Shown in pieces: positions 4,022-28,444 of a stretch of 32,000 bases of DNA. Source of the DNA: Candidatus Thorarchaeota archaeon (GTDB taxonomy: Archaea; Asgardarchaeota; Thorarchaeia; Thorarchaeales; Thorarchaeaceae); assembly GCA_003345555.1 (NCBI GenBank), contig PRDJ01000036.1:60001-92000 (forward strand). The letters run 5' to 3'. The position numbers and the translations under genes were made by a program. Within the stretch, counting starts at the first letter, position 1. The number at the start of each line of letters is the position of its first letter. The notes below the pieces were generated by a model. It had not been told where the DNA came from. It did not search any database and saw only the letters and a program-made list of their open reading frames with translations.

Positions 4022-4936
4022 TTGATGCCCAAGGCCATCTATGCAATATGGTGGGACCCCAACCTCGGTCCTTTTCTCGGCCGGTCATACCCAGAGAATG
4101 ATCCGCTGACGTCCGAAGAAGCTGTAGTCATCTTCATGGGGCATGGACTGCAACAAGAAGCGAAGGTCGGCTACACAAAGTTGGCAAAGGGGTTGGTGGT
4201 ATCTTATCTTGACAGCCCAAACTGTATCGCGGTACTACTGGATGAGAACGATGATCCCTCAGTTGTCGAAAGGAATCTGCTTAGACTCGTCGGCCGTATC
4301 AATTTCAACAGCAGCAAATGGGATGCGGAGATAACGCGTGCCTTTCTTCTGTTGCAGGAACTCATCGCAGAGACATCTGGCCAAGAGCTGCTTTCCAATC
4401 CCCACGTTACCAGACTTGTCGAAGACATGGCTACGGGTAGAGTGTCAGCCCTGGTTCCTAGGCACGTGCTAAGGGCAACTGCAAAATACCCAAAGGCTTC
4501 GGACTACTTGGGACCCGATGAGGAAGAGGTCTCAAGACTGCTTAAGGATCTAGAACGTGCAGGCCACTTGGTTCCGAAGACATATGGAAGAAGAGTTGAA
4601 TGCAGACAGTGTGGAGGCACCGAAGTCACTCTCGAACTCGCGTGCCCTTCGTGTGGGAGTAATGACATCTACAAAGTCTATCTGGTGTTCTGCCCCAAGT
4701 GCGGTAATAGGACTCAGACAGTACTCGTAGATGACTTGACCGAGGTACGGTGCCAACAATGCAAGCAGCCTGCAAAGGTGTCAGAACTGTCTGTCATAGA
4801 CGTGGAGCTGCTCTGCAAAGGGTGTGGGCAGGCGACAAACGATCCCAAAATTGTACTGTCTTGTGCGAATTGTGGAAAGCACATGACAAACACTGATCTT
4901 TTAGGCGGGACAGGGTTGGCATACTATCCGGCGTAG
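4022..4936 (+). CDS. uDENN/longin-like N-terminal domain + winged-helix-like segment + triple Zn-ribbon (TackOD1-like) protein
   Basis: N-terminus AIYAIWWDPNLGPFLGRSYPE fits the uDENN-type longin start (hydrophobic strand, D/H-P-x-x-G-P, Y/V-P). The middle has a helix plus EEEVSRLLKDLERAGHLV. The C-terminus has six CxxC pairs (CRQC, CPSC, CPKC, CQQC, CKGC, CANC) in the arrangement recalled for thaumarchaeal output domain 1. Confidence 0.7.
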   Translation: MMPKAIYAIWWDPNLGPFLGRSYPENDPLTSEEAVVIFMGHGLQQEAKVGYTKLAKGLVVSYLDSPNCIAVLLDENDDPSVVERNLLRLVGRINFNSSKWDAEITRAFLLLQELIAETSGQELLSNPHVTRLVEDMATGRVSALVPRHVLRATAKYPKASDYLGPDEEEVSRLLKDLERAGHLVPKTYGRRVECRQCGGTEVTLELACPSCGSNDIYKVYLVFCPKCGNRTQTVLVDDLTEVRCQQCKQPAKVSELSVIDVELLCKGCGQATNDPKIVLSCANCGKHMTNTDLLGGTGLAYYPA

Positions 4937-4973: not shown

Positions 4974-6584
4974 TCATGACCTCTTTCGCTCAGTCCCCTT
5001 TTGGGGTTTTGACTTGATGGCTTTCTTCAGAGCATCACGCACGTTCGCAAGTATCTTCTCCGCCTGCGATACGCTGAGACCTTTCGCCTTTGATGACAAC
5101 CGCTGAGGTGTCTCGCCTGCGAGTTGCTGTGCCGACTCGTACCCCGCCTCTCGAAGTCTCTCCTCCATTCTTGCACCTATTCCGGGAATCTTGCGTAGTG
5201 GAAGTACCTTCTCCATATCCGGGCCAATTATGTCGTGCATGTCCTTATCGCTGAGCTCTTGCATTCCCATGATGTCAAGCTGGCTCTTTATTGACTCGAA
5301 TTCCCCTGACCCAACGTACTGTTCGACTGTCTGCTTCACAAGGCGTTCGTCGAAATCGAGACTCAACTTCTCTATTTCTATCTCCTTTCCGAGAATCTCT
5401 GGGATGGGTGCAGACCTGTACAGAGCAAGCATTGCAAGAAGAATCGCGATCTGCGTTCCGAGAACTCGCAGATCGGCAGGGGGATACCAGTTGATTACAA
5501 AGGAGACCCGAAGCGATACGGCCCAGAAGAGGGCTACATACCCAGCGAAGAAGATCCATACTGCAGCTGTTCTGCGGCTCTTGGTCCTCGGAGAACCGAT
5601 TTCGGGCCATATCAGTAGCAAGATGAGGCCCAGAAAGAAACCTTCGATGAACCTCTCGGAGACCAGCAAAGCCGCAGCATACAATTGTATGGCCTCCACA
5701 GCAATCGGACTCAGTATTGTCAGTAGACCAAACAGGAGTACTCCGGTAGTGAAGGCGCCCTTTCTCCCTCTCCGGTCAGCGATTGTTCCAGCAACAACAA
5801 TCCCTACAATCATCATAATGGGCTCATAGAGCGAAAGACCCGAGTACTGGCCCAACGATTCGTACGTGCTAAACCCGGCATCTTGGAGCACCTTGATTAT
5901 TCCTAGCTGTGTCCCAAAGTACCACAGGATGTGTCCGGCCATGAGGATTGTGACAGGGATAAAGTACGACAATGCGTTCCCTTGGACGGCAAAGCGTTTG
6001 TACTCCATTCTCCAAGGTTTGAATGCGAGACCGAGTAGTACCGCGCCAACTGCCAGAATCTCCATCACTGGGATTCCTGATGCATCCAGGTTTATTCCAT
6101 ATGAGCCAAGAGCTGAGTAGATAGCAAACAGAACCAGTGAGAAGGTCATGAAAGCCGCGATGACCCTTCCCCGATACTTGGCTACCACGGCCTTGCCGAG
6201 TTGCACAACCCAGCTGAGCAGCATAACCGCCATACCGCTGAAGACGGATACTGTGAACAGCATCTCAAGCCCGGGGGAGGATGTGCTTGGAGTTCCTGTT
6301 TGAACGAGATACATGCCAACAAACAGGGGAACAATCGCGGCAAACGTCGTAATGACATAGCCTCGTCCGATATAATCGACAATGAATCCGGCCACAAGCA
6401 AGGTCAATACTGTAGAAAGGAGACCTATCCCCAAGAACTGTAGATTCTGCCCGCCAAATGCCGGAAAGAGGGCTTGGTTGCTCAATTGAGTAATTGCATA
6501 CATGAAATAGGCCATGGTTGGAGATACTAGCGCGAAGTATGCGGCCTTCCTGAAGGGAAACTCCCTGTACTCAAGCATATCCAA
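4974..6584 (-). CDS. MFS-like multipass transporter fused to a C-terminal helix-hairpin-helix domain
   Basis: About 12 hydrophobic segments. MFS motif A appears in both halves (GFIVDYIGRG; GTIADRRGRK). The soluble tail has LRKIPGIGARMEERLREAGYESAQQLA...KGLSVSQAEKILANV, a RadA-N/HHH_5-type tandem HhH. Start is TTG 6584 or ATG 6578. Confidence 0.8.
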   Translation of the reverse strand: MDMLEYREFPFRKAAYFALVSPTMAYFMYAITQLSNQALFPAFGGQNLQFLGIGLLSTVLTLLVAGFIVDYIGRGYVITTFAAIVPLFVGMYLVQTGTPSTSSPGLEMLFTVSVFSGMAVMLLSWVVQLGKAVVAKYRGRVIAAFMTFSLVLFAIYSALGSYGINLDASGIPVMEILAVGAVLLGLAFKPWRMEYKRFAVQGNALSYFIPVTILMAGHILWYFGTQLGIIKVLQDAGFSTYESLGQYSGLSLYEPIMMIVGIVVAGTIADRRGRKGAFTTGVLLFGLLTILSPIAVEAIQLYAAALLVSERFIEGFFLGLILLLIWPEIGSPRTKSRRTAAVWIFFAGYVALFWAVSLRVSFVINWYPPADLRVLGTQIAILLAMLALYRSAPIPEILGKEIEIEKLSLDFDERLVKQTVEQYVGSGEFESIKSQLDIMGMQELSDKDMHDIIGPDMEKVLPLRKIPGIGARMEERLREAGYESAQQLAGETPQRLSSKAKGLSVSQAEKILANVRDALKKAIKSKPQKGTERKRS

Positions 6585-6737: not shown

Positions 6738-7631
6738 ATGACAGGACCGTTGAAAGTGCAGGAGTTCATGGTTCTGACGGTAGGAGGAATACCCCTCTTC
6801 CATTATTCACCCAATGATTCGAGAAAACTCGATACTCTGCTGTCCGGATTCCTTAGTGCCGTCTCAAGCTTCGCGGCCGAGTTTGGAGAGCGTTCAATCC
6901 AGAGCCTATCCTTTGAAGGCTCGGAGATTCTCTATCAGACAGAAGCAGATGTTCTGTTCGTATTCGTAGTTGGATCTGGTGCAGAGAAGCGCGTCTTGAG
7001 GGCTGTGCTCAGAGACCTTAGTCGCAAGTTCCTCAGTAGCTACCAAGAGGAAATCAAGGCAGACGTTCTCATCGAGGATGCATTCAAGGGCTTTGCCGAC
7101 GAGGTCAAGAGATCCTTCTCGTTCTACGAAGGCGTTCTTGCAGTGGCAGCAAGTCTTAGCTCGTTTGTTGTTCCAAAGATAAACCAGGCAACATTCGATG
7201 CGGCTGTGAGCTTGATGGGGCTTTTGGATGAGCTGCATCGTGATTTTGGTATTGGTGGCAGCAGGATTGTGGATGCAATTGATGGAAAGGCCTCCATCTA
7301 CGATGTAAGTCGAATAACCGGAATTGAGATTGATCAAGTAACAGAGGTTGTCGAGTATCTCGTCATATGGGGTGTAGTCAGGGTGTTTAAGATGTGTCCA
7401 GCAATTCAGGCAAGCGACGCCAGGTTCGACATCTACCTCGATATCGTTGGTCTTCCCAAACGAGACAATCAGATTCTAATTCGAGCAAGACCTTTCTGTA
7501 AAGGCGAGAAGTCACTGGTTGAAATAAGCGAGAAAATAGGAGTCACAGCTGAAAAGCTACACGAGATACTAGGTAAGCTTGGCAATGCCGTAAGCTGGAA
7601 CTACATTGAAGTTACAAGCCTGTCACACTGA
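6738..7631 (+). CDS. Longin domain + two winged-helix domains (NPRL2/NPR2-like C-terminal half)
   Basis: The N-terminal ~115 aa show the Asgard-type longin pattern (FMVLTVGGIPLFHY...LLSGFLSAVSSFAAEF...IQSLSFEGSEILY...LFVFVV...LRDLSRKFL). wHTH1: IVDAIDGKASIYDVSRITGIEIDQVTEVVEYLVIWGVV. wHTH2: ARPFCKGEKSLVEISEKIGVTAEKLHEIL. Confidence 0.8.
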   Translation: MTGPLKVQEFMVLTVGGIPLFHYSPNDSRKLDTLLSGFLSAVSSFAAEFGERSIQSLSFEGSEILYQTEADVLFVFVVGSGAEKRVLRAVLRDLSRKFLSSYQEEIKADVLIEDAFKGFADEVKRSFSFYEGVLAVAASLSSFVVPKINQATFDAAVSLMGLLDELHRDFGIGGSRIVDAIDGKASIYDVSRITGIEIDQVTEVVEYLVIWGVVRVFKMCPAIQASDARFDIYLDIVGLPKRDNQILIRARPFCKGEKSLVEISEKIGVTAEKLHEILGKLGNAVSWNYIEVTSLSH

Positions 7632-7684
7632 ATTGCCTGACCGGATCTACAGGACTCTCGACGACGGATATGGGTCTGGTAAGG

Positions 7685-7730
7685 TATAATAGCAGTGGCA
7701 CCCAGTCACAGGACACGGCTCACCGGGGGT
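7685..7730 (+). promoter_or_regulatory. Candidate TATA box (TATAAT, 7685-7690) and RBS (GGGGGT, 7725-7730) for the gene starting at CTG 7738
   Basis: Both motifs are read directly. The RBS lies 7 nt upstream of CTG 7738. Confidence 0.45.
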
Positions 7731-7737
7731 CACATCG

Positions 7738-9033
7738 CTGGTCAAAGAAGTCCTCATCCTACGTGAAGGCGGAATTCCACTCTTTCATTACAGTGTTGGC
7801 GGCACAAAGAAGCTAGACGAACTCGTTGCAGCCTTCTTATCGGTCATGGGGTCTCTTGCAGAACGAGTAAGTGAACAGCAAATCAAAGTCGTATCGTTCG
7901 CCTCGAACAAGTTCGTCTGGCAACAAAAAGGCGACCTTCTATTCATAGCCCTGGTGTCGCAGGAAGACAGTGTAGAGATATACCGTGTGTTACTCCGGGA
8001 CCTTGCAGATCAGTTCGTAAGCACGTTCTACTCGGAACTGAAAAGTGGAACGAGTCAGTTCACTGTATTCAAAAGGTTCGCAGACACCGTTGAAGCTACA
8101 CTTCAAAGGTTCGATGGTATTCCGGGTCTGGCCCGACGCTACAAGATAGGCCTCCTGCCTGCTGACGATCTGAAGCGGCTAAGGATTGTCATGGCGCAAG
8201 CGGAGAGGCGTCCTGGCGTGATGAGAGGAGCAGTAATCACGCGTGACGGCTTTGTGCTTGCCTCCAACCTTAGGTCATACGAGATGGAAGCCTTGCTGGA
8301 TCTTCTGGATAGTCTGAGTTCCGCTCCTAAGTTAGCTGAAAGGAGCCTGACTCTTTCCCATACGAGCTTGGACCCGTTGACGCGCTTTTTCGTCACTAGG
8401 GCGGAGAATAACGTGTATTGTATATTCATCGTGAGTGCAGAGAAACCTGACAGCCAGCTCTTGAAGGGAGTTGAGCCTGTGCTCGCCGCTGTCGCTTCTC
8501 TTGACCAAACAAGCCTGAAAAGAGTTCTCCCCACATATCTAGCCGAGTCGACCGGATTCTACGAATATGATTTGGTCATACCGTTGATCCCTGTTGCAGA
8601 GGCGCTAGACAGCTCTAGCAGGTTTCTCGGCGGAATCGAGGACACCCTTCGAGCTAATGCTGTTACCGTCCTCAATATTGTAGACCAGAGGAACACAATC
8701 ACTGACATAGAAAGGAAGACGGGGTTTACGGCTGAGGAAACAACTGAAGTACTAGCCCATCTCGTCTCGAATGGCATTGTCAAAATAGCAAAGCTCTATC
8801 CCGTCATGGCTGAAAGGGACAGACGATTTGCGGCATTTCTTGAAGTCGCAGGAATGAATAATAGGGACTATCGCATAGTCGATGCCATCTGGCAGTATTG
8901 TACAGGAGCGTATTCGCTCAAGGAAGTGTCTGACGAAACAGAAATCCCCGCAGCTCGAATACTTGAGGTGCTCAAGTCGTTAGGCAAATACGTCAGATAT
9001 GAGACAGAAAGGGTGATGCAACACGTGCGCTGA
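7738..9033 (+). CDS. Longin + roadblock/LC7 + two winged-helix domain protein (paralog of 6738..7631), probable CTG start
   Basis: The frame is open upstream of the tracked ATG 7846 and encodes VKEVLILREGGIPLFHYSVGGTKKLDELVAAFLSV, clearly homologous to the paralog N-terminus. No in-frame ATG/GTG/TTG lies between the stops at 7687-7692 and 7846. Central roadblock motif: RPGVMRGAVITRDGFVLASN. C-terminal wHTH pair: VLNIVDQRNTITDIERKTG...LAHLVSNGIV and YCTGAYSLKEVSDETEI. Confidence 0.8.
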   Translation: MVKEVLILREGGIPLFHYSVGGTKKLDELVAAFLSVMGSLAERVSEQQIKVVSFASNKFVWQQKGDLLFIALVSQEDSVEIYRVLLRDLADQFVSTFYSELKSGTSQFTVFKRFADTVEATLQRFDGIPGLARRYKIGLLPADDLKRLRIVMAQAERRPGVMRGAVITRDGFVLASNLRSYEMEALLDLLDSLSSAPKLAERSLTLSHTSLDPLTRFFVTRAENNVYCIFIVSAEKPDSQLLKGVEPVLAAVASLDQTSLKRVLPTYLAESTGFYEYDLVIPLIPVAEALDSSSRFLGGIEDTLRANAVTVLNIVDQRNTITDIERKTGFTAEETTEVLAHLVSNGIVKIAKLYPVMAERDRRFAAFLEVAGMNNRDYRIVDAIWQYCTGAYSLKEVSDETEIPAARILEVLKSLGKYVRYETERVMQHVR

Positions 9034-9037
9034 CATA

Positions 9038-9787
9038 ACGTCGAAGATAGTGTGTATCCATAGCTTCAGGGGTGGAACTGGGAAGTCCAATATAGCAGCC
9101 AATCTTGCTGCAGTCGCTGCCCTCGATGGAAAGAGAGTTGCTGTCATAGACACCGATGTGGCGTCACCGGGAATACATGTAATCTTTGGACTAGGCAGGC
9201 AAAAACTGAAACACACACTTAATGACTACCTACGCGGAGAGTGTGATATCAAAGACGCCTGTATGGATATGACGAGCGAACTTGGTATCAGGCGAGGACA
9301 ACTGTTCTTGATTCCCAGTTCGATGAGCGCCACCGACATTACGCGTATTCTAAGAGAAGGTTTTGAGGTCAGCGATCTCAAGAACGGATTCACTGAAGTG
9401 ATCAAGGCAAAGAACCTCGATTACCTCATTATTGATACGCATCCGGGTCTTGACCGCGAGACTCTGCTGTCGATGGCCACGACAGACTTCCTGTTCGTGG
9501 TAGCCAGAATCGATGAGCAGGACCTACTCGGCACGGCAGCAACATTGAGCGTCGCCAGTAAATTGCAGGTGCCCGATACTCGAATTATCATCAACAAGAA
9601 GCCGAGCATCTACGAAGACAAGGCGATAATCGAGGAAGTTGAGCGGAAGTTCAAGACGAAGGTCGTTACAATCATCCCGATGCTGCAGATTCTCACCGAG
9701 GTTGGTAGTAGGTACATCGTCTGTTTGAAACATCCAGAGAGTGAATTCACTCAGCGGATGCAGGAGATCTACTCAGTCATCAAATAG
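9038..9787 (+). CDS. MinD/ParA-family (SIMIBI) ATPase
   Basis: Deviant Walker A SFRGGTGKS, VIDTDVASPGIH, and IIDTHPG Walker B/switch II. The track start is GTG 9050; in-frame ACG 9038 would restore the recalled family N-terminus MSKIV(S/C)IHSFRGGTGKSN. Confidence 0.92.
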   Translation, partial: TSKIVCIHSFRGGTGKSNIAANLAAVAALDGKRVAVIDTDVASPGIHVIFGLGRQKLKHTLNDYLRGECDIKDACMDMTSELGIRRGQLFLIPSSMSATDITRILREGFEVSDLKNGFTEVIKAKNLDYLIIDTHPGLDRETLLSMATTDFLFVVARIDEQDLLGTAATLSVASKLQVPDTRIIINKKPSIYEDKAIIEEVERKFKTKVVTIIPMLQILTEVGSRYIVCLKHPESEFTQRMQEIYSVIK

Positions 9788-10457: not shown

Positions 10458-12395
10458 ATGGTACAATCGATTTCTTCTGAAACAGCCGCCTCAGAATCTG
10501 AGGCAACTAAAGCTGTAGATAAGCTCGCAGGAATTGGTGGTCTTGTCGGAGCTGCAGCTGCTGTAATTGGGCTTGCATCATTAGCTTTAGCTGGCATGGT
10601 TCCCGCTGGTACGGTTCTTGAAATCCCTTCACTAGGGCTTGAGCTGACCCAGAACCACACGAATATCGTTATTTCAGCAGTCTTCGTTGCCATTCTGGCT
10701 CTCGGGTTGTTCCTCCAGTACAGGGGAGCAAGAGTGATTGGTTCGCTTACAGAATCAAGGGTATCAATGTTGACACTCATCACGGGAATCGTTGCCCTTG
10801 GCACGACCTCCATAATCTTGGGTGGCCTTGGTGTTCCTGCGATTGAATCTACTCCTGTCAATACCTACAGATCGTCGGTCGCATTGGGTGGTGCGGTTTT
10901 CATTATCATGTGGCAGTTCGTTTCCATTACATACGTTGACTCAAGCAAGTCTTACAGGGGTATGGCAGCCGGCATGATGAACGGATTCTTTTTCCCTGCC
11001 CTAGCCATCAATGCTGCGGCAGGTTATGCACTATTACTTGGCGGCCAGCTTGCCATGATGGTTTTCTGGTGGGGTCCAAGATCCCAGATAAGGGAGTTCG
11101 CCCGAAGCACCGATACTGCCAAGTTCGCTTTTGGTTTGTCAGGATTCCTCACGTTCCTTATTGGCGGCTTTGCGGCCTTCGGGAGTGCACTCCAGTCTGT
11201 TGAAGGTGTTGGAGTCTGGCTGCCTTGGTCGAGCGCCACTGTTGTTGGATCAAAGGTAGTATACACAACTCCGCCTTGGTTTGTTCAGGCCCTTCTCTCA
11301 TCCATGTTGTTCTGGTCATTATTAGGACCCAGATTGGGCGCACGAGAGCTGCGCGAGTCCCAGATTTCTGAAGATATTGTCAAGGGCGCTTCGAAGTACT
11401 TGATGATATTCATGGCAATCCTGGGCATCATCGCCGCCGGTCAATGCGGCACAGGCGTTGCAACACCACGAGATTCGGATTTTCTTGTTCCGGCGTGGAG
11501 CATGTTCCAGTCATTGTGTCCCGCGGCTATTATGTTCCTCATGGGATCTAGCTATATGCGTTCGACTGATGTCGTGACGGGTCTGCCTTTGGTGTTGGCT
11601 TCTGTCTATGCCTTGATAGGACCCTATGTTCTATCCAGCGTTGCTATCTTCACATGGGCACTCTTGATACTCACCCAAGGAATACTCACGATTGAGACGA
11701 AGTTCCGCAAGTTCACTCACTTCTCACAGAAGTTCCTAACCGTCATCGTGACCGTAGTACCTTCTGTACTCTTTGTCCTTTTCATGTTGGGCGCCTTTGG
11801 AAGCGGTCCTCCTGCCTTATGGCCTGCCAACAGATGGTTCAACGTCGCACTGCTTGCAGGAATTCCACCTGATGTTCAAGGACCCACGATTATAGCCACG
11901 GTTTTGAGCTGTCTGCTTGTCCGGAACGTAGCATTGTCCGGATATGCTTTCGGTCGTGGCTACAGCCGCACAGGAGTGATTGGTGGCGTCAGTTTCCTTT
12001 TTGCGTTGATGATCATAACAATCTCCGGGAATGCGGGCGTCGTTCATCAGGCCCTGACAGCTGCGGCACTTTCCTTCGGCCTGTATGCCGTAAGCTATGT
12101 GCTTGTTCTTTCACTTAACCTGAACTTGGGCGCTGATATCCTGAAAGCGGGGCATCAGTTGGAAGGTCAGTTTGTAAGAGTAGCAGCTACTGCGGGCCTC
12201 GCGGCAGGAATACTAGTTGCCGTGTTCTTGTTCTTGGTATTCTCCGGAGCCCCTTTGGCTTCGGACATATCGATTGCCATCACTCTACTCGTCATGTTGA
12301 TAGCAGGTATCGAGATCACCTGTGTGATTACTTGGATCTCTGCCGGAATCAGACTCAAGATGTTAACAGAGGGTCTCAGACTCAAGATGCCGTGA
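10458..12395 (+). CDS. Large polytopic membrane protein of unknown function (about 17-19 TM segments)
   Basis: 645-aa ORF with GAGGA RBS, almost entirely Gly/Ala/Leu-rich hydrophobic helices with short loops. No family motif recognised. Confidence 0.8.
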   Translation: MVQSISSETAASESEATKAVDKLAGIGGLVGAAAAVIGLASLALAGMVPAGTVLEIPSLGLELTQNHTNIVISAVFVAILALGLFLQYRGARVIGSLTESRVSMLTLITGIVALGTTSIILGGLGVPAIESTPVNTYRSSVALGGAVFIIMWQFVSITYVDSSKSYRGMAAGMMNGFFFPALAINAAAGYALLLGGQLAMMVFWWGPRSQIREFARSTDTAKFAFGLSGFLTFLIGGFAAFGSALQSVEGVGVWLPWSSATVVGSKVVYTTPPWFVQALLSSMLFWSLLGPRLGARELRESQISEDIVKGASKYLMIFMAILGIIAAGQCGTGVATPRDSDFLVPAWSMFQSLCPAAIMFLMGSSYMRSTDVVTGLPLVLASVYALIGPYVLSSVAIFTWALLILTQGILTIETKFRKFTHFSQKFLTVIVTVVPSVLFVLFMLGAFGSGPPALWPANRWFNVALLAGIPPDVQGPTIIATVLSCLLVRNVALSGYAFGRGYSRTGVIGGVSFLFALMIITISGNAGVVHQALTAAALSFGLYAVSYVLVLSLNLNLGADILKAGHQLEGQFVRVAATAGLAAGILVAVFLFLVFSGAPLASDISIAITLLVMLIAGIEITCVITWISAGIRLKMLTEGLRLKMP

Positions 12396-19403: not shown

Positions 19404-20636
19404 GTGACTCTCTTGCCGGGTTACGTCGAGGTCCGTGATAAGGGCATTCTAAGAAAGAAGATACCGACAAGCAACAGATCATTTGAAAACGTGTGCTCCG
19501 ATCTTGAGCGCTTCTTCAAGGACGCAGGAAAGAAGCTGCCGCCCGGCGTTGTAAGAGAAGCTCTACAGAGAATAGGTGTTCCTCAGGTTAAGATGATAAT
19601 CTCACAGGCGGAGCCACTAGAAGAATCACAAGCAAAGGTTGTCAAGGAGATTTCAGCCTCGGTTGAGGCTAGGAAGAAATCAAAGAGAAAGCCGAAGGTA
19701 GCCAAGAGTACAAGTAAGACAGAGGAAGTTCCTGAAGCGGCCAAGAAAGAACCAGCAGGTGACATATCTGGCATTGAGTATCACGACGTTGAAGAAGCTT
19801 TGAGCGTAGTGGAATCCCTGAGTGATTCGTTTCTCTCATCCAAGTCCAAGGATGCATCCCGTGCAACTCCTGACAAGGGTAAAATCAGTATCGAAGTCGA
19901 GGGAACCGAAGAGATAGTCGGTGCTCCCCGCTTGCGGGCGGCCATGCCAGAACAAGTGCCGCATGCGATCAAGGCCACTGCTGAACAGTTTCCGCCCTCA
20001 CCGACGGAGTCCGGCAGACCCAAGGAGGCGGCTCAGTCTCCCACACGCATACCCAAGACGCAGGTGATTGCAAAGGCCCTGATTCTGGGGGAAGAAGGCG
20101 TAGGCAAGTCATCATTGATAGCAAAGGGAGGCCTCAAGCCGCTCGAGTCAAGCCCTGAGGCAGAGAAGAGACCGTATGTCACGGAGAAAGTGATTGAGGT
20201 TGACAACTACAGAGTCAGGCTGCAGGCATGGCTATTTGACGCAGCTTCGGCCTCAAGAGTGACAAGAAAGGCGTTCTATGAAGATACTGGTCTCGTCATC
20301 ATTGTGTATAGCACATCAGACCGTTGGTCATTCGAGAGCATTGATTTCTGGCTCAAGGAGAGCATATCGGCCTCTGGGATACGACCTCCTGTGGTTATCG
20401 TCGGGAACAAGACCGACGTTCGAGCCAACTCACCCCTCGTGGACAGGGAGCCTCCGGTATCACCAGAAGAGGGATTGAAGTTGGCACATGAAATAGCCTC
20501 GAAGCTCGCATCGGGGCAGAAGACTCATCCAGTAGCCTTCATTGAGACCTCGTGCCTCACTGGCCAAGGTGTTGAGGACCTGTTTAGGATGGCTGCAGAG
20601 CTTTTCGTCAAGTCAATCAATCGACCGAAAGCATAG
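19404..20636 (+). CDS. Rab/Ras-like small GTPase domain with degenerate switch motifs and ~215-aa N-terminal extension
   Basis: G1 GEEGVGKS, G4 VIVGNKTD and G5 FIETSCLTG are present. G3 reads AWLFDAAS instead of WDTAG. Rab-like spacing includes IIVYSTSDRWSFESIDFWLKE. The N-terminal half is mostly K/E/S/P/A-rich. Confidence 0.85.
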   Translation: MTLLPGYVEVRDKGILRKKIPTSNRSFENVCSDLERFFKDAGKKLPPGVVREALQRIGVPQVKMIISQAEPLEESQAKVVKEISASVEARKKSKRKPKVAKSTSKTEEVPEAAKKEPAGDISGIEYHDVEEALSVVESLSDSFLSSKSKDASRATPDKGKISIEVEGTEEIVGAPRLRAAMPEQVPHAIKATAEQFPPSPTESGRPKEAAQSPTRIPKTQVIAKALILGEEGVGKSSLIAKGGLKPLESSPEAEKRPYVTEKVIEVDNYRVRLQAWLFDAASASRVTRKAFYEDTGLVIIVYSTSDRWSFESIDFWLKESISASGIRPPVVIVGNKTDVRANSPLVDREPPVSPEEGLKLAHEIASKLASGQKTHPVAFIETSCLTGQGVEDLFRMAAELFVKSINRPKA

Positions 20637-21173: not shown

Positions 21174-21818
21174 TCAACTGCCTACGGCTGCCTGACTCTT
21201 CTCTTTGACAATTTCATGACCCGATAGGCCCACTCCTCTGACTCTGGAAGCCGCGGTCTCAAGCATGCCAATCCTGTAGGTTGTCGTCCGTGGACCGAGA
21301 CCCTGAAGCCATTCAAGCCCGGCCAGATCCAAACGGTTGTTGTGCAGAAAGTAAACCTTCAAGTCAGAGACCAAAGCCGCGCGCCTGTCAAAGAAACCGA
21401 CAATGATTCCAATAGTTGGTGCTGCGAAGGCAACCATCACCCATATGGCGGCCAACGGGTCGCTATTGAAGTACTCGTAGAAGAACAAGTACCCTGAGAT
21501 GACGGGCTGTACAAGAGCTAGCAGGACCAAGAGCAGAGCCACGTGTTGGGTCGCATCGTCGCTCCCGAGCCCCGACAGCCCGATTACATCTTGATTTGGC
21601 GTAACAAGATACACGAGCACTGCTCCAGAGGAGATACCCACCACGAGCGCCGAGGCAGCAATCAACATGAGATATGTAATCGGTGACTCAGTCCACACAT
21701 CGGGAAATCCTATGGAGGCCTGGATCAACAGTGACACACCGATAATTGCAGCACCAACGGCAAACCCTCTCCAACTGAAGAACTCGTATCGTTCCCCATG
21801 GAGAACTCCCTCAGACAT
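21174..21818 (-). CDS. Hypothetical membrane protein (four TM segments plus soluble C-terminal domain)
   Basis: Four hydrophobic helices and a ~75-aa hydrophilic tail. ATG start with GGAAGG RBS. Confidence 0.75.
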   Translation of the reverse strand: MSEGVLHGERYEFFSWRGFAVGAAIIGVSLLIQASIGFPDVWTESPITYLMLIAASALVVGISSGAVLVYLVTPNQDVIGLSGLGSDDATQHVALLLVLLALVQPVISGYLFFYEYFNSDPLAAIWVMVAFAAPTIGIIVGFFDRRAALVSDLKVYFLHNNRLDLAGLEWLQGLGPRTTTYRIGMLETAASRVRGVGLSGHEIVKEKSQAAVGS

Positions 21819-22088
21819 TCCTTCCGATTCTCTCTGACTATTCTATGGCCAAATATGTCCAATAATGAGATAAAGGTTCTGTTTACTGCTTCAACGCCGG
21901 CTCAAAGCTGCGCTCATCATCTCGAAGACTGCACAGGAACACGGGAAGCTCAAGATGCATGTGCCATTTGTTCCTCTAAGGCCGATTCACGAGGAGGGGA
22001 TTCCTGTGCTGGGAGGACCTTCTTTATTAGCAGACGACGCTCAGTAGGAGCGACTTCTCCGCAGAGGCCAGCGGTGGGGAGGAATCAG

Positions 22089-22784
22089 ATGAGTTCCGAG
22101 AATGTCATCGACCTAGACTCTGTTTCGAAGATATACAGGATGGGTGAGATTAAGGTTCCAGCCCTAAGGGGCGTGTCGCTGAGGGTAAAGAGAGGCGCAG
22201 CAATTGGAATCATGGGCCCGTCTGGCTCGGGCAAGACGACTCTTCTCAATCTTATCGGCGCGCTCGACCGACCAACGGATGGACGGGTCACTATAGACGG
22301 CGTGGACATTACACACATGAGCGAGAGCGAGCTAACACTCGTTAGAAGGAACAAGATATCGTTCGTGTTCCAATTCTTCAACCTGCTTCCGGTCTTGACA
22401 GCATACGAGAATGTCGAACTACCGCTGCTCATCAGTGGAGTCCCCGAAGTGGAGAGAAAGGAAAAGGTCGACCATCTGCTCGGACTGGTCGGTCTCACAG
22501 AGAGAGCAGACCATAGGCCGGACGAACTATCTGGCGGCGAACAGCAGCGAGTGGCCATTGCTCGCGCTCTGGCGAAACCAAAAGGCACGACGAGTTCCGT
22601 TATCGTCTTGGCCGATGAACCAACAGGGGACTTAGACACGCTTACTGGCTCAGATGTCATGAAGGTACTAATCGATCTCACCAAAGGAGAAGGAGGAACT
22701 CTTATCGTGGTCACGCATGACCCTGATGTTGGGAAACAGATGGATAAAGTCTACAACATGAGGGATGGCCGCATCGTCGATTAG
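22089..22784 (+). CDS. ABC transporter ATP-binding protein, LolD/MacB/SalX type
   Basis: Walker A GPSGSGKT, FVFQFFNLL, signature LSGGEQQRVAIARAL, LADEPTGDLD, VVTHD. The true start is taken as ATG 22089 (GGGGAGG RBS); the 97 upstream codons in the track look non-coding. Confidence 0.95.
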   Translation: MSSENVIDLDSVSKIYRMGEIKVPALRGVSLRVKRGAAIGIMGPSGSGKTTLLNLIGALDRPTDGRVTIDGVDITHMSESELTLVRRNKISFVFQFFNLLPVLTAYENVELPLLISGVPEVERKEKVDHLLGLVGLTERADHRPDELSGGEQQRVAIARALAKPKGTTSSVIVLADEPTGDLDTLTGSDVMKVLIDLTKGEGGTLIVVTHDPDVGKQMDKVYNMRDGRIVD

Positions 22785-22792
22785 CTTTCGGG

Positions 22793-25618
22793 GTGAGCAC
22801 GACGACCGCAGCTCCAGCCGATTACGGGTTTGTGCACGATCTGAGAAGGAAAGCTATCACACTCGTGTGCTTTGTTCTCGCATCGACAATCGTAATGGGA
22901 ATAGGTACCTACATAGATTCGACATCCGTACATGAATGGGACAAGACTACGGACATCGGGCCTTTTGCCATGTCAGTCAGCGTATACGACCCATACGCCG
23001 GACCTAGTCTCCTAGAGACTCTTGGCACCATCAGAGGCCTGCCGGGGGTAGAAAGAGCGGCCTATCTCGAAAGGTCATGGGGAAGCTTGAGCATTGTCAA
23101 TGAGACCTACTATACAGGATACTACGGAGAGATGGTTGGTCTGGATTCCGACTTTCTCACCGTCTTTCCGAATTCATACGTCCTGACCAAGGGTCGACTG
23201 CCAACGAATGTTTCGGAAATCGCGCTCTTTGTAGACGCCTCTCAAGCGCTTCACCTAAGTGTCGGGGACAAGGTGAACTGCACACTTCCTGACTCGTGGT
23301 CAACTCTCAGTGTCGTAGGGGTCTTCTCCGTTCCAAAGGAGCTTTACAGCAGCTGGAGTTACTATTCGGAAGTAGCAATACTCGACAGAGGGCTTTTGCA
23401 GCAGGGCAGCATCGTGCCCATCGTCCTCCTCGATGTCAATAGAACACTTCTGAGCCCGTTTGACGCTAATGGCGCTTGGAACTATCTGTCTGGAATAGAG
23501 AAGAGCATTCGGACTCTTGATCCAAGCTACAATCCTCCCTCATCCTACTTCTCACGGTTCGTGGTGAACGACCCGCTAGCGAATGCGATTGCCTCTTTCA
23601 TGGGTTGGAGGACGGGAATGCGGTTCACTGAACTGATAAGAGGAGGAGCAGTCGTGCTGCTTGTCGTTCTCACGATGTTCTTGGCCATTCGTTTCAACAT
23701 GAATGACCGACGATACGAAAGAAGCGTCCTGACATCAAGAGGAGCTTCGAAGTCTGACTTGAATCGCATGGTCATCAGAGAACTTGCAGGACTTGCGTTC
23801 ACGGGGTTAATCATTGGTCTTCTCTCTGGTGTGCTAATCAGCAGGGTGGCTAGTACAGCCACGGGCTTCTTTGAATTTGACCAAGCACGGCTGTGGAGTG
23901 AGCCATTCCTAGTGACCATAGAATCGATTGCGACTTCAGTTGTCTTGGGATTGGTGCTGCCTGCAGCGAGCTTTGTAGTCTACACCGCACTCTACTCAAC
24001 GAAATTAACTGGCGAAGTGCAGAGAGGAAGGCTTGCCAAGATGGTAAGAGTGTTTGTTCTTCTCCGTTGGGATTTCGCTATTCTCGTACTTACCGGGTTA
24101 GTCATGTTTCTCACTTACACCGCAGGGAGTGCGGTGAAGACGAACCCGGTGCTAACAATCATGGGGCTCTTGTCACCTGTCATTCTGTTCATAGGACTCT
24201 CCAGTCTTACTGTCAAGGGGTTCAGGCGCGGCGCGAACTGGCTGTCACGCAGGATATCCAGGATTACGGGCGACTTACCCGCTTACGGTGTCAGGAGAAT
24301 CGGCAAGGAAGCATCGTCAGCAGGAGTCATCGCGGTCATAATTGTGCTAAGTCTGACCATTGCCTGGGGTTACGCATTTGTTGGTACCTCGATACCGATG
24401 ACAAAGATCAACCAAGCAAGGCTTGCTTTCGGGGCCGACGTAACCTTCCACATCGACAAACTGTCGGCCGAAGAAAGAGGCGACTTCGTTAGTAACGCAT
24501 CACTCAATTCAGGGGTGGAGGCCGGAGCAAGTCTTTCTGTACTCAGTATGATGCTGTCGGCAAGTAGTTATGACTACGCAACTGCTGTGGCGATGAACCC
24601 TTCGGAATACTTGAAGGTAGGCTATGACTATGAGGGGACTCCGCTCGAATCCTCAGAGCTCAGACAGGCTATCGTCAGTCTCGAGTCGACTCCGAATGGG
24701 ATAATCATTAGTTCTGATATCGCCACCGAATATGAGCTGAATGTTGGAGACACACTTCGAACATCTTACGAAAGCACAAATGGCTCCAAGGTAATCATCT
24801 TCATTATACTCGCAGTTACGCCTGCACTCAGTGACGCGCTTCTGCTTGACACTGGTTATGAGCAACCGTACTCAGGACCGATATACTACGGAGCGAACCC
24901 GCCCCCGTACGATTCATCGCCATACTACTACTGGCCATTCTATCAAGTCGGCAAGAACACAATGTGGACAAACGGACAGTATCTCTCAGAACAACTCAAC
25001 CTCACGGAGGTTGGAGTTCACCTTTATTGTGTGCGGACCACGCCAGATGCAAATGCCACAGCAGTTGCCCAGGAGATTATCGGTTCTGCCTGGAACGATA
25101 CAATCGGCGATGATGATTGGGCCTCGGTCACAAGAGATCTGACCGGATACATGAATCAAGCTGAATACAGGATAGACCGCTCCATCGACACAATGTTCAC
25201 CGTGTGCATGATTCTATCCATGTTTGCGGCTCTCATTGTTTATGCCGGAGAGGATGTTCAGGCACGCCGTCGGGAAGTAGCCCTGCTCAGGGCGATGGGG
25301 TCTGACAGTCGTCTGGTGGCCAAGGTGCAGGGAGCGGAAATGCTTGTACTCGCGTTTTCAGGCATCCTGTTGACCCTCATCTTCGCACCCATTCTCATAT
25401 TCAATTGGCTTATGTTGTATAGTACCAGTTTCTATGTCTTCCCTGTCATTGTAACGCTCATCGTTCCTTGGTTACAGCTCACTATCATTCTTCTTTTGTT
25501 CGTAACTTCGATTACCGCTTTCATTGTGCTGGTGGCCATCTTCAGCCCAAGAATCAACTTGGCAGTATCGCTCAATGCGGCTTGGGCAGAAGCTAGCCCC
25601 TACGGAGGTGAACTCTGA
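22793..25618 (+). CDS. FtsX/MacB-type ABC permease with two extracytoplasmic domain + FtsX modules
   Basis: TM1, large extracellular domain, FtsX helices with RRYERSVLTSRGAS; second module ends with RRREVALLRAMGS. GTG start with GGG RBS. Confidence 0.88.
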   Translation: MSTTTAAPADYGFVHDLRRKAITLVCFVLASTIVMGIGTYIDSTSVHEWDKTTDIGPFAMSVSVYDPYAGPSLLETLGTIRGLPGVERAAYLERSWGSLSIVNETYYTGYYGEMVGLDSDFLTVFPNSYVLTKGRLPTNVSEIALFVDASQALHLSVGDKVNCTLPDSWSTLSVVGVFSVPKELYSSWSYYSEVAILDRGLLQQGSIVPIVLLDVNRTLLSPFDANGAWNYLSGIEKSIRTLDPSYNPPSSYFSRFVVNDPLANAIASFMGWRTGMRFTELIRGGAVVLLVVLTMFLAIRFNMNDRRYERSVLTSRGASKSDLNRMVIRELAGLAFTGLIIGLLSGVLISRVASTATGFFEFDQARLWSEPFLVTIESIATSVVLGLVLPAASFVVYTALYSTKLTGEVQRGRLAKMVRVFVLLRWDFAILVLTGLVMFLTYTAGSAVKTNPVLTIMGLLSPVILFIGLSSLTVKGFRRGANWLSRRISRITGDLPAYGVRRIGKEASSAGVIAVIIVLSLTIAWGYAFVGTSIPMTKINQARLAFGADVTFHIDKLSAEERGDFVSNASLNSGVEAGASLSVLSMMLSASSYDYATAVAMNPSEYLKVGYDYEGTPLESSELRQAIVSLESTPNGIIISSDIATEYELNVGDTLRTSYESTNGSKVIIFIILAVTPALSDALLLDTGYEQPYSGPIYYGANPPPYDSSPYYYWPFYQVGKNTMWTNGQYLSEQLNLTEVGVHLYCVRTTPDANATAVAQEIIGSAWNDTIGDDDWASVTRDLTGYMNQAEYRIDRSIDTMFTVCMILSMFAALIVYAGEDVQARRREVALLRAMGSDSRLVAKVQGAEMLVLAFSGILLTLIFAPILIFNWLMLYSTSFYVFPVIVTLIVPWLQLTIILLLFVTSITAFIVLVAIFSPRINLAVSLNAAWAEASPYGGEL

Positions 25619-28444
25619 ATGTTCATACCCTCGTCCCTAGCCACGTATGGCCGACGGCTGGTCGTTTCCTTCTTCATATTCGCACTTTCCTCGGGAGTTG
25701 TCGGTGGCGTCTTCTTTTACCTGGACTGGACCGGACCCGAAGTGTTCGAGACGGGAGTCCAGCAGGTTCCAGTTGACATGCAGCTGGGTCTCACTTGGCC
25801 CTTCTATCAGCAAAACGAAACAACGCTGGAGAACATCACAGGGATGGTAAGAGAACAAGAAGATGTAGCAGGAACAGAAATCGTATCGTTCCTTCAGACT
25901 TGGGAATACTCCGCTGAACAGTACGAATATACGTCATTGACATACCTCGGGATAGAGCCTTCGTTCTTTGATACGTTCCCGAACGCCATCCTTCTGAATC
26001 CGGGCAGCCCCCCACTGAACAACAGTACATGTTACGTTCAGGAGGAAATGATGGGCCATTGGGGAGTTGATATCGGCCAGAACCTCACGATCCACGTCTT
26101 CAAGTACAACCAGTCCGGTTACGAGATAGAACTCAATGTGACACTGTTGGTCGTAGGAACATTCACATCACAGCTGTTCATGGAACAACAGTACTGGTCG
26201 GGACCTCAGCTGTCAACTCTAAGGGTAGTTACAACGAGAGACTCACTGACCTTGGCCTTTGGCAATGCAAGCGCGTACGAGTATGGCGTTCCTCAGGAGC
26301 AGGTGTGGATTGCCTTTGACAGGGCCGCCGTTATAAGAGGAGGCGCTGCGGTCGCCACAGATGAGCTAACCAACATCAGAAGGCGAATTGAACAGAGAGC
26401 ACTACCATATGTGAGCGTCCCATACGATGGATTCAAGCTGCTGGATGCAGTAACCGAGTTTTCTGCATGGTCTTCCGATATGAGAGCCATCTCTGTATGT
26501 GCATCCCTGCCCACAATTATCATGGGCGCAATGCTGGTTCACTACGAATCCACACTCACTGCGGACCAAAGAAGAAGAGACACGGGTACCCTCAGAACAA
26601 GAGGAGCATCGGGCATGCAGGCATTCATGTGGACAATGACTGCCGCTCTCTTCATGGGACTAGTTGGTAGTATCGGAGCAGTGATTATCGGCTACTTCGC
26701 TGCATCGCTCTCTGGTACTGTGCGGACCCTGCTCGAGTTTCAGTGGTCTCAATTTCAGTTGTTCGCTTTCGTTCCGCAGCCGAGCTCAGTTGTCTTTGTA
26801 TTCATGTTCTCATTCATACTGGGACTGTTTGTGGCACTACCAGGCGCTGTCCGAGCTATGATAATGTCCGCATCCGAGGCCCGTGCTGCAGTTGCCAGAG
26901 AAGACCTGCCGACACCTGAGAAAGCCCAAACACCATGGGCGAATATCATTGGTCTGGGACTCAGTGCTTACGCTCTTTCGGGAATTCTGTCGTCACTCAG
27001 CTATATCTCTGACGCAGGAATCCAGGCTTCACTGTTGATCACGGCACTTCCTTTTCTGGCCATCTTCATGTTCACTTTTGCACGACTCCTCTCTAGCCCC
27101 GCGGCCACAGTAAAGGCCAAAGTGCTGAGTTGGTTCAGGAGACCTTCGCTGTCAGCTGGAGCAACGGTTGTGGGCCGGAACCTAGTCCTATACCACAAGA
27201 CTCAGTCGTTGGGAGTCATGTTTGTCGCTATGGTCTTTACAGCCGGCGTGTTCTCAGCGCTCTCCGCTACGACAGGCTACTACCACATGAGAGACCTTCT
27301 GATGTTCCAAGCCGGCGCTGACATCAGAGTTGATGTGAGCTCCGGGGAAGAAAACATCACTCTGAGTATCATGGGTAATCTGACAACTATCGAAGGCATA
27401 GAGTCAGCCGCCGCCATGCTCTCAACAAATGCCTATGTCAGGTATACAGAATGGACGGATTACTACGGCTACTATACTCAGAATAGATCGATTCGCATGT
27501 TTGCTGTCCAACCTTCCGAGTGGTATCAGGCAGGCTTCTGGCAGCCTTATTTCGCATTAAGCGGCAATCCGCAAGCTTCTCTTCAACGTCTTGTGGAGAG
27601 CAATTCAACCGTAATTACTTCATTCAAACCAATCCTCTCGCGTTCGTACACTCCTTTTGGCCAGACAGTCACTTACGGAGACACTCTCACTCTGACAGTT
27701 GTGGGTACAGGCTGGAAGAACCAAAGCGTTTGTACTATTGTTGATGTTCTCGGTGACGACCCGGCAGGGCAGGGAAGAGCTTACTTCCCTGGACAACCAG
27801 ACCTCACTGATTTCCTGATAATCAATCTGCGCTACGTTCATGCTTGTCTCAGGACTACCAAGATTGACAGTCTGTACATCCGTCTGCGACAGGATGCTAA
27901 CTTCTCCCAAGTAATCGAAAAAGTCCACGATGTTGCGCCAGGCAGCTTCAAGACAATCGATTCGGGTCTCAAGAGGATCGATGACGCCCTTGCTTTGAGA
28001 TCAGGAAGATCCATATTCGGAGTGTACACTTTGAATCTTGCGTTTTCGATAACATACCTGACAATCGGAATCGCTATCGTGTCCATAGAGAGGATAGGTA
28101 AGCTGAGAAGGCAGCTCTCTGTCTTCAGGGCACTGGGGGGAGAACCAAAGTCTATCGCCATGTCAATCATGGTCGAGACAGCAGTGGGGCTTCTGATCGC
28201 TGCGGCAATAGGCAGTCTCCTAAGTCTGCTTCTCACTTACCTTATCATGAAGGTCCCGTTAATGTTCTTCGGATCTCTCACTGCTACTCTCTGGTCGCGT
28301 CTGCCGATCGAGCTCGTTATTCCGACAGAGCTGCTTCTTTCGATTGTCGGGTTCACTTTCCTTTGTTCTTTGTGCTCAACCTTCATTGTTACGAAGAGAG
28401 GCCTTAGCGTCGGCATAGCCGAAGATATTCAGGTCGAGGAATGA
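25619..28444 (+). CDS. Second FtsX/MacB-type double-module ABC permease
   Basis: Same architecture; motifs RRRDTGTLRTRGAS and RRQLSVFRALGG. Starts immediately after the previous stop (TGA-ATG). Confidence 0.88.
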   Translation: MFIPSSLATYGRRLVVSFFIFALSSGVVGGVFFYLDWTGPEVFETGVQQVPVDMQLGLTWPFYQQNETTLENITGMVREQEDVAGTEIVSFLQTWEYSAEQYEYTSLTYLGIEPSFFDTFPNAILLNPGSPPLNNSTCYVQEEMMGHWGVDIGQNLTIHVFKYNQSGYEIELNVTLLVVGTFTSQLFMEQQYWSGPQLSTLRVVTTRDSLTLAFGNASAYEYGVPQEQVWIAFDRAAVIRGGAAVATDELTNIRRRIEQRALPYVSVPYDGFKLLDAVTEFSAWSSDMRAISVCASLPTIIMGAMLVHYESTLTADQRRRDTGTLRTRGASGMQAFMWTMTAALFMGLVGSIGAVIIGYFAASLSGTVRTLLEFQWSQFQLFAFVPQPSSVVFVFMFSFILGLFVALPGAVRAMIMSASEARAAVAREDLPTPEKAQTPWANIIGLGLSAYALSGILSSLSYISDAGIQASLLITALPFLAIFMFTFARLLSSPAATVKAKVLSWFRRPSLSAGATVVGRNLVLYHKTQSLGVMFVAMVFTAGVFSALSATTGYYHMRDLLMFQAGADIRVDVSSGEENITLSIMGNLTTIEGIESAAAMLSTNAYVRYTEWTDYYGYYTQNRSIRMFAVQPSEWYQAGFWQPYFALSGNPQASLQRLVESNSTVITSFKPILSRSYTPFGQTVTYGDTLTLTVVGTGWKNQSVCTIVDVLGDDPAGQGRAYFPGQPDLTDFLIINLRYVHACLRTTKIDSLYIRLRQDANFSQVIEKVHDVAPGSFKTIDSGLKRIDDALALRSGRSIFGVYTLNLAFSITYLTIGIAIVSIERIGKLRRQLSVFRALGGEPKSIAMSIMVETAVGLLIAAAIGSLLSLLLTYLIMKVPLMFFGSLTATLWSRLPIELVIPTELLLSIVGFTFLCSLCSTFIVTKRGLSVGIAEDIQVEE

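Follow-up and report, generated by a model that had tools for sequence, protein, structure and literature searches.

A paralogous gene pair and its operon

Two adjacent genes of a Thorarchaeota archaeon encode paralogous proteins that share a longin domain and two winged helices, and the longer of the two carries a roadblock domain inserted between these parts. Both genes lie on the forward strand in the stretch of 32,000 nucleotides that was analysed here (hereafter the window; C36:60001-92000 of a 2.28-Mb Thorarchaeia bin). The short paralog (6738..7631, +; P0002, 297 amino acids (aa)) has a longin domain followed by two winged helices, without a roadblock. The long paralog (7738..9033, +; P0001, 431 aa when read from the CTG at 7738) consists of a longin domain, the roadblock and two winged helices, its extent being given by the open frame and by an alignment of orthologs from residue 1 onwards. 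It is followed by a gene for a MinD/ParA-type ATPase (9035..9787, +), recognised by the Pfam families AAA_31, CbiA and ParA, with the NCBIfam model minD_arch below its cut-off. A first-pass annotation, made from the sequence alone, had proposed the layout of longin, inserted roadblock and two winged helices beside a shorter paralog, and this layout is borne out by alignments and structural models.

The long paralog aligns with the upstream gene at both ends. In BLASTP comparisons, residues 2-132 of P0001 match residues 7-137 of P0002 (36% identity, E 4e-26) and residues 279-421 match residues 143-287 (29% identity, E 3e-20), while about 145 residues of P0001 (133-278) remain unmatched in P0002. 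This two-ended alignment establishes the long and short genes as true paralogs, and since the region of about residues 133-278 is without a counterpart in P0002, it represents a true insertion relative to the short paralog. The sequence motifs that the first-pass annotation had picked out, GGIPLFHYS, RPGVMRGAVITRDGFVLASNL, EYDLVIP, KLYPVM and YCTGAYSLKEVSDET, are all found in the translation of 7738-9033.

An AlphaFold2 model of the full P0001 chain, built with 45 family sequences, has a mean predicted local distance difference test score (pLDDT) of 78. It contains a longin fold of the order b-b-a-b-b-b-a-a (a, helix; b, strand) at residues 1-124, an a-b-b-a-b-b-b-a fold at 142-253, and two units of a helix-turn-helix plus hairpin at 286-422. 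From this model, from VIA-align superpositions and from Pfam, the N-terminal longin domain with its b-b-a-b-b-b-a-a fold is placed at residues 1-125 (7738..8112, +). A conserved linker of the GIPGLARRY type follows at residues 126-135 (8113..8142, +), as defined by family columns and pLDDT. The inserted domain of the roadblock/LC7 (MglB-like) kind covers residues 136-258 (8143..8511, +), on the evidence of the gap in the paralog alignment, a model of the domain and its fold matches. A second linker, with a FYEYD-type motif, spans residues 259-285 (8512..8592, +), where the alignment to the short paralog resumes. The first winged helix (residues 286-358; 8593..8811, +) is drawn from the AlphaFold2 elements H302-344 and E348-357 and from Pfam matches in the family, and the second (residues 359-425; 8812..9012, +), which bears an invariant R363 and a C388/G390 motif, is drawn from the AlphaFold2 model and from a Pfam TrmB match at 390-417.

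These domains have diverged to different extents. Mean pairwise identity in the long family is 0.60 for the longin domain, 0.40 for the roadblock, 0.32 for the first winged helix, the least conserved domain of the family, and 0.55 for the second. Full invariance is confined to E156, R163, D170, S176 and E182, which lie in the roadblock's first half, and to R363. The roadblock is nonetheless ruled out as the most conserved domain (0.40 versus 0.60 for the longin), and it is only the fully invariant residues that cluster there. In the GIPGLARRY linker, the columns G127, P129, G130, A132, R133, R134 and Y135 are conserved at 90% or above. The model is poor in this linker (pLDDT below 50 at residues 126-132), which could be a docking motif. 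In the FYEYD-type linker, P265, F274 and D278 are likewise conserved in at least 90% of the family.

The long family comprises about 150 clusters at 90% identity, for which the listed source names are all "hypothetical protein" and the named organisms all Thorarchaeota archaeon; a whole-library HMMER search with the long form gave just 14 cluster representatives below 1e-30. The short form has a similar spread, and NCBIfam holds no model for either paralog. Matches occur in 75 of 87 Thorarchaeia species genomes, with all 17 genera represented. That most Thorarchaeia genomes encode an NPRL2-like family had already been published in 2020/21 (bioRxiv 10.1101/2020.10.19.343400). In published texts on the subject, figures and supplements apart, we found no mention of the roadblock insertion or of the link to a MinD-type ATPase.

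Gene order around the pair is strongly conserved. A divergent membrane protein with a helix-hairpin-helix (HhH) tail, the short paralog, the long paralog and the MinD/ParA-type ATPase follow one another in 27 of 29 loci from relatives, and the start of the ATPase gene overlaps the stop of the long gene, or lies within 12 nucleotides of it, in all but one of the 26 loci measured. The pair is most likely co-transcribed with the ATPase gene. The ATPase is far more conserved than either paralog, being 75-95% identical across genera as against 44-76% for the long protein. Its P-loop, a deviant Walker A motif at window positions 9062-9088, reads SFRGGTGKS and is identical in 26/26 orthologs; it has an arginine at the position of the signature lysine of MinD/ParA. 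This ATPase is the most constant partner of the paralogs, and had not been weighed in the earlier reading.

Two lineages have only one of the paralogs. In genus g12, most genomes are without the long gene, and the short gene stands directly before the ATPase in 5/5 loci fetched. In family f2, the sister of family f1, a 96%-complete genome has a single roadblock-bearing gene of the long type, followed by the ATPase, without the short paralog or the transporter neighbour. With these variants taken into account, the constant association is that of a longin/winged-helix protein with a MinD-type ATPase. The roadblock-bearing form is, on its present distribution, at least as old as the split of families f1 and f2; the long, short and f2 single-gene clades, having no outgroup, give no rooted information on gain versus loss of the roadblock.

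Folds of the roadblock and longin domains

Modelled alone, residues 134-264 of the long protein give an AlphaFold2 structure with a pLDDT of 90.7, a predicted template modelling score (pTM) of 0.85 and the topology a-b-b-a-b-b-b-a. In a Foldseek search of the PDB, the matches of this model are almost purely roadblock proteins. The best is Roadblock of Thorarchaeota SMTZ1-45 (7f8m; E 9e-7, template modelling score (TM) 0.64/0.69), and MglB from Thermus and Myxococcus matches with E 1e-5 to 4e-4 and TM 0.66-0.72; others include LAMTOR2, the C-terminal domains of Rag proteins, MglC and dynein LC7. VIA-align superposes residues 138-259 of P0001 on MglB (1j3w_C) over 118 residues, with a Z of 12.8 and a root-mean-square deviation (rmsd) of 2.7 Å, and the same region scores Z 12.3 with Loki Roadblock3 (9jue) and Z 11.8 with the RagA C-terminal domain. 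By its topology and its superposition on solved roadblock proteins, the inserted domain belongs to the roadblock/LC7 superfamily as a matter of fold. The claim of the first-pass annotation that the middle domain is a roadblock thus stands, given the confident model and the matches to 7f8m and MglB; a fold other than roadblock or longin, which had been fixed beforehand as the outcome that would speak against it, was not what emerged.

The domain shares with MglB, LAMTOR2 (of Ragulator), the Rag C-terminal domains and the Asgard Roadblock proteins (7f8m, 9jue) the same a-b-b-a-b-b-b core plus C-terminal helix, at TM 0.64-0.71 and Z 12-13 over about 118 residues. These relatives are stand-alone proteins or C-terminal fusions to GTPases and pair with a second roadblock, whereas the present domain occurs as one copy, flanked by a longin domain on one side and winged helices on the other. 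Unlike typical roadblocks, the inserted domain is also too diverged to pass the Pfam model Robl_LC7 (PF03259). The match of this model to P0001 (residues 155-193; E 0.062) scores 13.5 bits and so stays short of the curated cut-off of 23; a scan of the genome gives 12 PF03259 matches, none of them the inserted domain, and a Pfam scan of 45 isolated insert sequences returned zero Robl_LC7 matches. A Robl_LC7 match with E 2.9e-5 in the tally of full-length family members was rejected as a signal of the insert, as it maps to the N-terminal longin domain of P0011 instead. Searched against PDB sequences, a profile of the roadblock domain has 7f8m as its sole match (E 0.36), and in an hhalign comparison with nine roadblock proteins from its own genome, 53 columns align at E 0.023, keeping helix 1, strands 1 and 2, and helix 2 in register. 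The roadblock signal at the level of sequence is thus marginal, and concordant with the fold. No NPRL chain is present among the top 50 structural matches of the roadblock-domain model, which is no proof that the domain differs from the middle region of NPRL3.

For the N-terminal domain (residues 1-127), VIA-align finds the longin domain of VAMP7 (Z 14.6), Sec22b (Z 14.0), and sigma-adaptins and SRX (Z 12-13). The nearest Pfam family is Fuz_longin_1 (PF19036), which scores 26.1 bits on P0001, exactly its cut-off; it matches nine of ten orthologs scanned, all nine below the cut-off, and 42/45 members of the long family at E up to 10. The first-pass annotation had further assigned a module to the long chain that resembles GTPase-activating proteins (GAPs). 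The longin GAPs FLCN, NPRL2, SMCR8 and C9orf72 are defined by an arginine finger together with a GP motif where strand 2 begins (PMC12290439). Neither is seen in the longin domain here: no column in residues 1-125 of the long family has arginine at 90% or above (the arginine-finger position was not superposed residue by residue), and the motif of the b1-b2 loop and strand 2 is G-[IV]-P in both paralog families, as against the GP motif of the longin GAPs (PMC12290439). With no conserved arginine and no strict GP motif, the label "GAP-like" for this chain is unsupported.

Kinship, pairing and a possible client

Longin and roadblock domains are recurring platforms for the eukaryotic guanine nucleotide exchange factors (GEFs) and GAPs of Rab, Rag and Arf GTPases, and the Asgard archaea are the place to study pre-eukaryotic forms of such platforms. 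The two families of eukaryotic regulators to which the long protein bears most comparison are NPRL2/NPRL3 and the subunits of tri-longin RabGEFs.

NPR2 and NPR3 consist of a longin domain and tandem winged helices (PMC3747258, PMC3521125). The likeness to NPRL2/NPRL3 (yeast Npr2/Npr3; the core of GATOR1/SEACIT) lies in a pair of paralogs of unequal length, each with a longin domain and tandem winged helices, of which the longer has extra material in the middle. This plan, with a longin domain at the N-terminus and tandem winged helices at the C-terminus, fits the short paralog, and it is found in the model of the long paralog with a roadblock added. The differences are that the insert here is a complete roadblock domain, that the arginine finger and the strict GP motif are absent, and that the linked NTPase is a MinD-type ATPase, with no Rag GTPase or DEPDC5-like gene in the operon.

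Sequence comparisons do not reach the NPRL proteins. Pfam NPR2 and NPR3 occur neither in the tables of matches to P0001 and P0002 nor among the 25 families with the most matches that are listed for each paralog family, and no match to NPR2, NPR3 or HTH_NPRL3 attains its Pfam cut-off. In 12/45 long and 5/40 short members, HTH_NPRL3 reaches 18-22 bits, short of its cut-off of 27.2, and these sub-threshold matches map to the second, and last, winged helix in the orthologs. When searched against PDB sequences, a profile of the whole family (A2) gives nothing significant, its only match being a MarR winged helix at E 0.07, and a profile of the C-terminal part from both paralog families (A5) finds only generic winged-helix regulators at E of at least 0.025, and no NPRL2/3. 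Since these profile searches yield no NPRL2/3, the residue-level NPRL2 motifs with which the first-pass annotation had compared EYDLVIP and KLYPVM, namely EYDVP and KYPVR, are putative only. The kinship with NPRL2 is one of fold only, plus the sub-threshold HTH_NPRL3 matches.

Tri-longin RabGEF subunits (Mon1/Ccz1, Fuzzy/Inturned, HPS1/HPS4), which in eukaryotes act as heterodimers of paralogs, resemble the long protein in having a first longin domain followed by a second domain of the roadblock type. They could also be its true counterparts: the long protein would then be an archaeal relative of these subunits and, with its partner, an exchange factor or platform for a Rab-, Rag- or Arf-like GTPase encoded elsewhere, the MinD gene being a mere neighbour. 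Fuz_longin_1, the best Pfam family for the N-terminus, points this way, as does a whole-chain Foldseek search of the PDB, in which Inturned, Mon1, Ccz1, Fuzzy and HPS1/4 come first (E 9e-9 to 2e-7), ahead of NPRL2/3 (from E 3.5e-7). Fuzzy aligns over longin and roadblock together (232-245 residues, Z 12.4-13.0 in VIA-align), and ESM Atlas clusters of MON1 and HPS4 align over 281-286 residues with TM 0.43-0.45. The genome also has many roadblock genes, and the window a Ras-like GTPase. Against this, the arrangement of domains superposes poorly, with an rmsd of about 8 Å in the two-domain alignments and TM below 0.5, and two winged helices replace the third longin/roadblock domain, so that the protein has two such domains where a tri-longin subunit has three in succession; no Fuz_longin_2 or Fuz_longin_3 appears among the Pfam matches listed. 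Furthermore, the short partner is without the second domain, and in none of the loci examined does a Rab-like or other GTPase gene accompany the operon, in contrast to MinD, which nearly always does. We consider a RabGEF-like role unlikely.

Taken as a whole, the long protein is, on its model, a mosaic, with its first two domains like those of a tri-longin subunit and its tail like that of NPRL2/3. NPRL3 (9o5d_C) aligns over residues 1-427, with 257 residues of the longin and C-terminal regions matched (Z 12.1, rmsd 12.6 Å). The sequence cut-offs of both families remain unpassed, except that of Fuz_longin_1, which is reached exactly.

NPR2 and NPR3 heterodimerise via both ends (PMC8534245), and the first-pass annotation had proposed a comparable, asymmetric heterodimer of the two adjacent paralogs. 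A complex prediction with the full-length long and short chains, each with its own alignment, scored 0.48, 0.48 and 0.46 in three runs (ipSAE, interaction prediction score from aligned errors), and none of three controls exceeded 0.00. Between runs, 91% or more of the contacts are shared, and the pLDDT of the partner is 79 or higher. The ipSAE mark used is reached by 58/80 solved complexes and by 2/110 mismatched pairs, counts that apply only roughly here because own alignments were used, and the band up to 0.60 holds only 7 of those 80 solved complexes along with both passing mismatches. A pass may reflect likeness to similar solved complexes, and not binding. These models make pairing of the long and short proteins plausible.

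The paralogs may instead not pair at all, forming separate homodimers (the long protein also through roadblock-roadblock contacts) with separate or redundant roles with the ATPase. Roadblocks typically homodimerise, as do MglB and Loki Roadblock3 (homodimer 9jue), and the short-only genus g12 and the long-type-only family f2 show each form to be workable alone. The heterodimer score, for its part, is in the weak band. We nevertheless regard exclusive homodimers as improbable, because the adjacency of both genes is conserved across most genera, the predicted heterocomplex scores 0.48 against 0.00 in the controls, and the paralogous longin pairs of eukaryotes are heterodimers (PMC8534245). Thus the asymmetric long-short heterodimer retains weak support from the model, and is not obligatory.

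The interpretation that we favour, tentatively, is an asymmetric platform of the long and short proteins with an extra roadblock docking surface, the client of which is the MinD-type ATPase and the winged helices of which serve protein contact. Longin domains and winged-helix ends would both take part in joining the two proteins, as in pairs of the NPRL2/NPRL3 and Mon1/Ccz1 types. The resulting platform would be asymmetric and would present, in its unpaired roadblock, one more surface for docking. The client would most likely be the downstream MinD-type ATPase, often encoded with start and stop overlapping, and not a GTPase of the Ras superfamily. The pair might control the nucleotide cycle of the ATPase or the place where it acts, perhaps at the membrane next to the transporter-like proteins encoded in synteny. 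The winged helices would mediate protein-protein contacts rather than DNA binding.

Several observations weigh against this platform. Longin and roadblock platforms are so far known with TRAFAC small GTPases and SRbeta (PMC3747258), and are not known with MinD/ParA ATPases. The genome has 12 other roadblock-domain matches, and a Ras-like GTPase is encoded 10 kb away in the window, so that a GTPase client encoded elsewhere is possible. The complex score falls in a weak band, and the pair is not obligatory: each form is found alone with MinD in some lineages (g12, f2), which means that homodimers must also work. Gene linkage alone is no proof of a physical interaction. Lastly, the start of the long gene is non-canonical, and this copy could be poorly translated or N-terminally truncated.

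The nature of the winged helices bears on a further explanation, that the paralogs are transcription regulators with DNA-binding winged helices and with longin and roadblock domains as sensor or partner-binding modules, targeting the divergent transporter-like gene, their own operon or both. Pfam families of DNA-binding regulators do match the winged helices: HTH_47, TrmB and MarR-type matches occur at the first winged helix in long-family members, and TrmB matches 44/45 long members (best E 4.8e-10), with HTH_24, IclR, MarR and ArsR also found. In addition, a homolog of the short paralog carries the name "DNA-binding Lrp family transcriptional regulator" in one source, and the divergent arrangement with the membrane protein gene (MFS-HhH) is conserved in family f1. 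This explanation is the least likely of those considered here and we rate it very low, since the Pfam matches describe a fold and not DNA binding, the winged-helix domains are net acidic to neutral in charge analysis, with a clearly acidic presumed recognition helix in the first (-3 in the long protein, -4 in the short), the whole-chain matches are NPRL3 and tri-longin proteins, the C-terminal parts of which make protein contacts (PMC8534245), and the gene of family f2 keeps MinD and not the transporter neighbour.

The asymmetric platform for the MinD-type ATPase can be extended, at long odds, to a broader proposal: the longin/roadblock pair would be a dedicated regulator of a SIMIBI-class MinD/ParA ATPase with invariable arginine in place of the signature lysine, a switch of an undescribed kind, and the long subunit, as a mosaic of the tri-longin GEF and NPRL plans, would stand near the shared origin of the two families of eukaryotic regulators. 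Whatever its fate, the main value of the system lies in the conserved link of a longin/roadblock platform to a MinD-type ATPase and in its natural single-gene variants. A Thorarchaeia-wide operon ties an NPRL2/3-like pair with one built-in roadblock to a different class of NTPase, which raises the question of whether longin/roadblock platforms first served another NTPase class. It is a small, expressible system of three proteins in which to ask what such platforms did before GATOR, Ragulator and Mon1-Ccz1, and the natural variants (short only, long-type only, both) are ready sets for comparison.

Start of the long gene and other genes of the window

The reading frame with its end at 9033 stays open as far back as a double stop at 7687-7692, and no in-frame ATG, GTG or TTG occurs in it ahead of 7846. 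The codon at 7738 is CTG, and the initiator methionine of full-length orthologs (about 425-433 aa, beginning "M-VKE...") aligns exactly there. In two relatives from the same genus this codon is TTG, and one of the two also has a GTG one codon earlier. The public database call for the long gene starts at ATG 7846 and gives 395 aa; a start there would deprive the longin domain of strands 1 and 2 and of part of helix 1. The C of the CTG is read also in a DNA contig of a 2018 wetland run, possibly the source of this DNA, and in a 151-nucleotide contig from an RNA library of another study, which covers 7734-7884. Since the same letters recur in both, the C at 7738 is no assembly slip, and CUG may be the translation initiator of the long gene, for which it is a candidate only. 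Altogether, three contigs of the wetland RNA library match letter for letter at 7734-7884, 8029-8264 and 8574-8724, a hint, with carry-over of DNA possible, that the long gene is expressed. Of two further sequencing runs, one yielded no contig here and the other a contig at the far end of the stretch alone, which speaks neither for nor against.

About 47 nucleotides upstream of the CTG lies an 11-nucleotide element resembling a TATA box, AAGGTATAATA (7681-7691, +), which the intergenic alignment shows to be conserved in three genomes of the genus; AAGGTATAATA would, we infer, act as a promoter. For the ATPase gene, an ATA at 9035-9037 aligns with the ATG, GTG or TTG start codons of 26 orthologs, and the first canonical codon is a GTG at 9050, five codons in. 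Two consecutive genes of the operon, those of the long protein and the ATPase, thus have near-cognate codons where relatives have standard starts.

Two loci of relatives depart in detail from the common arrangement. In genus g2 (G003:C6; L054 16614-16745), about 3.3 kb separate the long gene from MinD, and directly upstream of MinD in G003:C6 is a short fragment that resembles the last winged helix of the long protein (38% over 44 aa), which suggests a local rearrangement. The MinD-type gene of the closest relative (a 916-kb contig; L005 7289-8052) is called as two overlapping pieces of 95 and 175 aa, and tblastn aligns only its C-terminal part in one frame, suggestive of a frameshift or an assembly error.

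Upstream of the short gene and divergent from it is the gene of the multi-pass membrane protein (MFS-HhH) with a C-terminal helix-hairpin-helix tail (4974..6584, -), assigned by Pfam HHH_5 and by synteny, and syntenic in family f1. Before it lies the gene of a protein that joins an N-terminal domain to a zinc-ribbon output domain, TackOD1 (4022..4936, +; Pfam TackOD1, E 7e-18), syntenic in family f1 including genus g12; this protein's N-terminal part has an LGP motif in its first residues. Downstream of the ATPase, 10458-12395 (+) encodes a multi-pass membrane protein of 645 aa without a Pfam family, which recurs near the operon in several relatives (L005, L049, L050 and L054). The Ras-like GTPase of the window is a 410-aa protein encoded at 19404-20636 (+), about 10 kb downstream of the operon; its Ras/Roc/Arf-like GTPase domain occupies residues 224-399, and its N-terminal 220 residues are without a Pfam match. 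Further on, 21798-29352 (+) encodes an ABC ATPase, two tandem FtsX-type permease paralogs of 941 aa, and a second ABC ATPase with a MraZ-like tail, and looks like an ordinary transporter cluster of the MacB/FtsX type.

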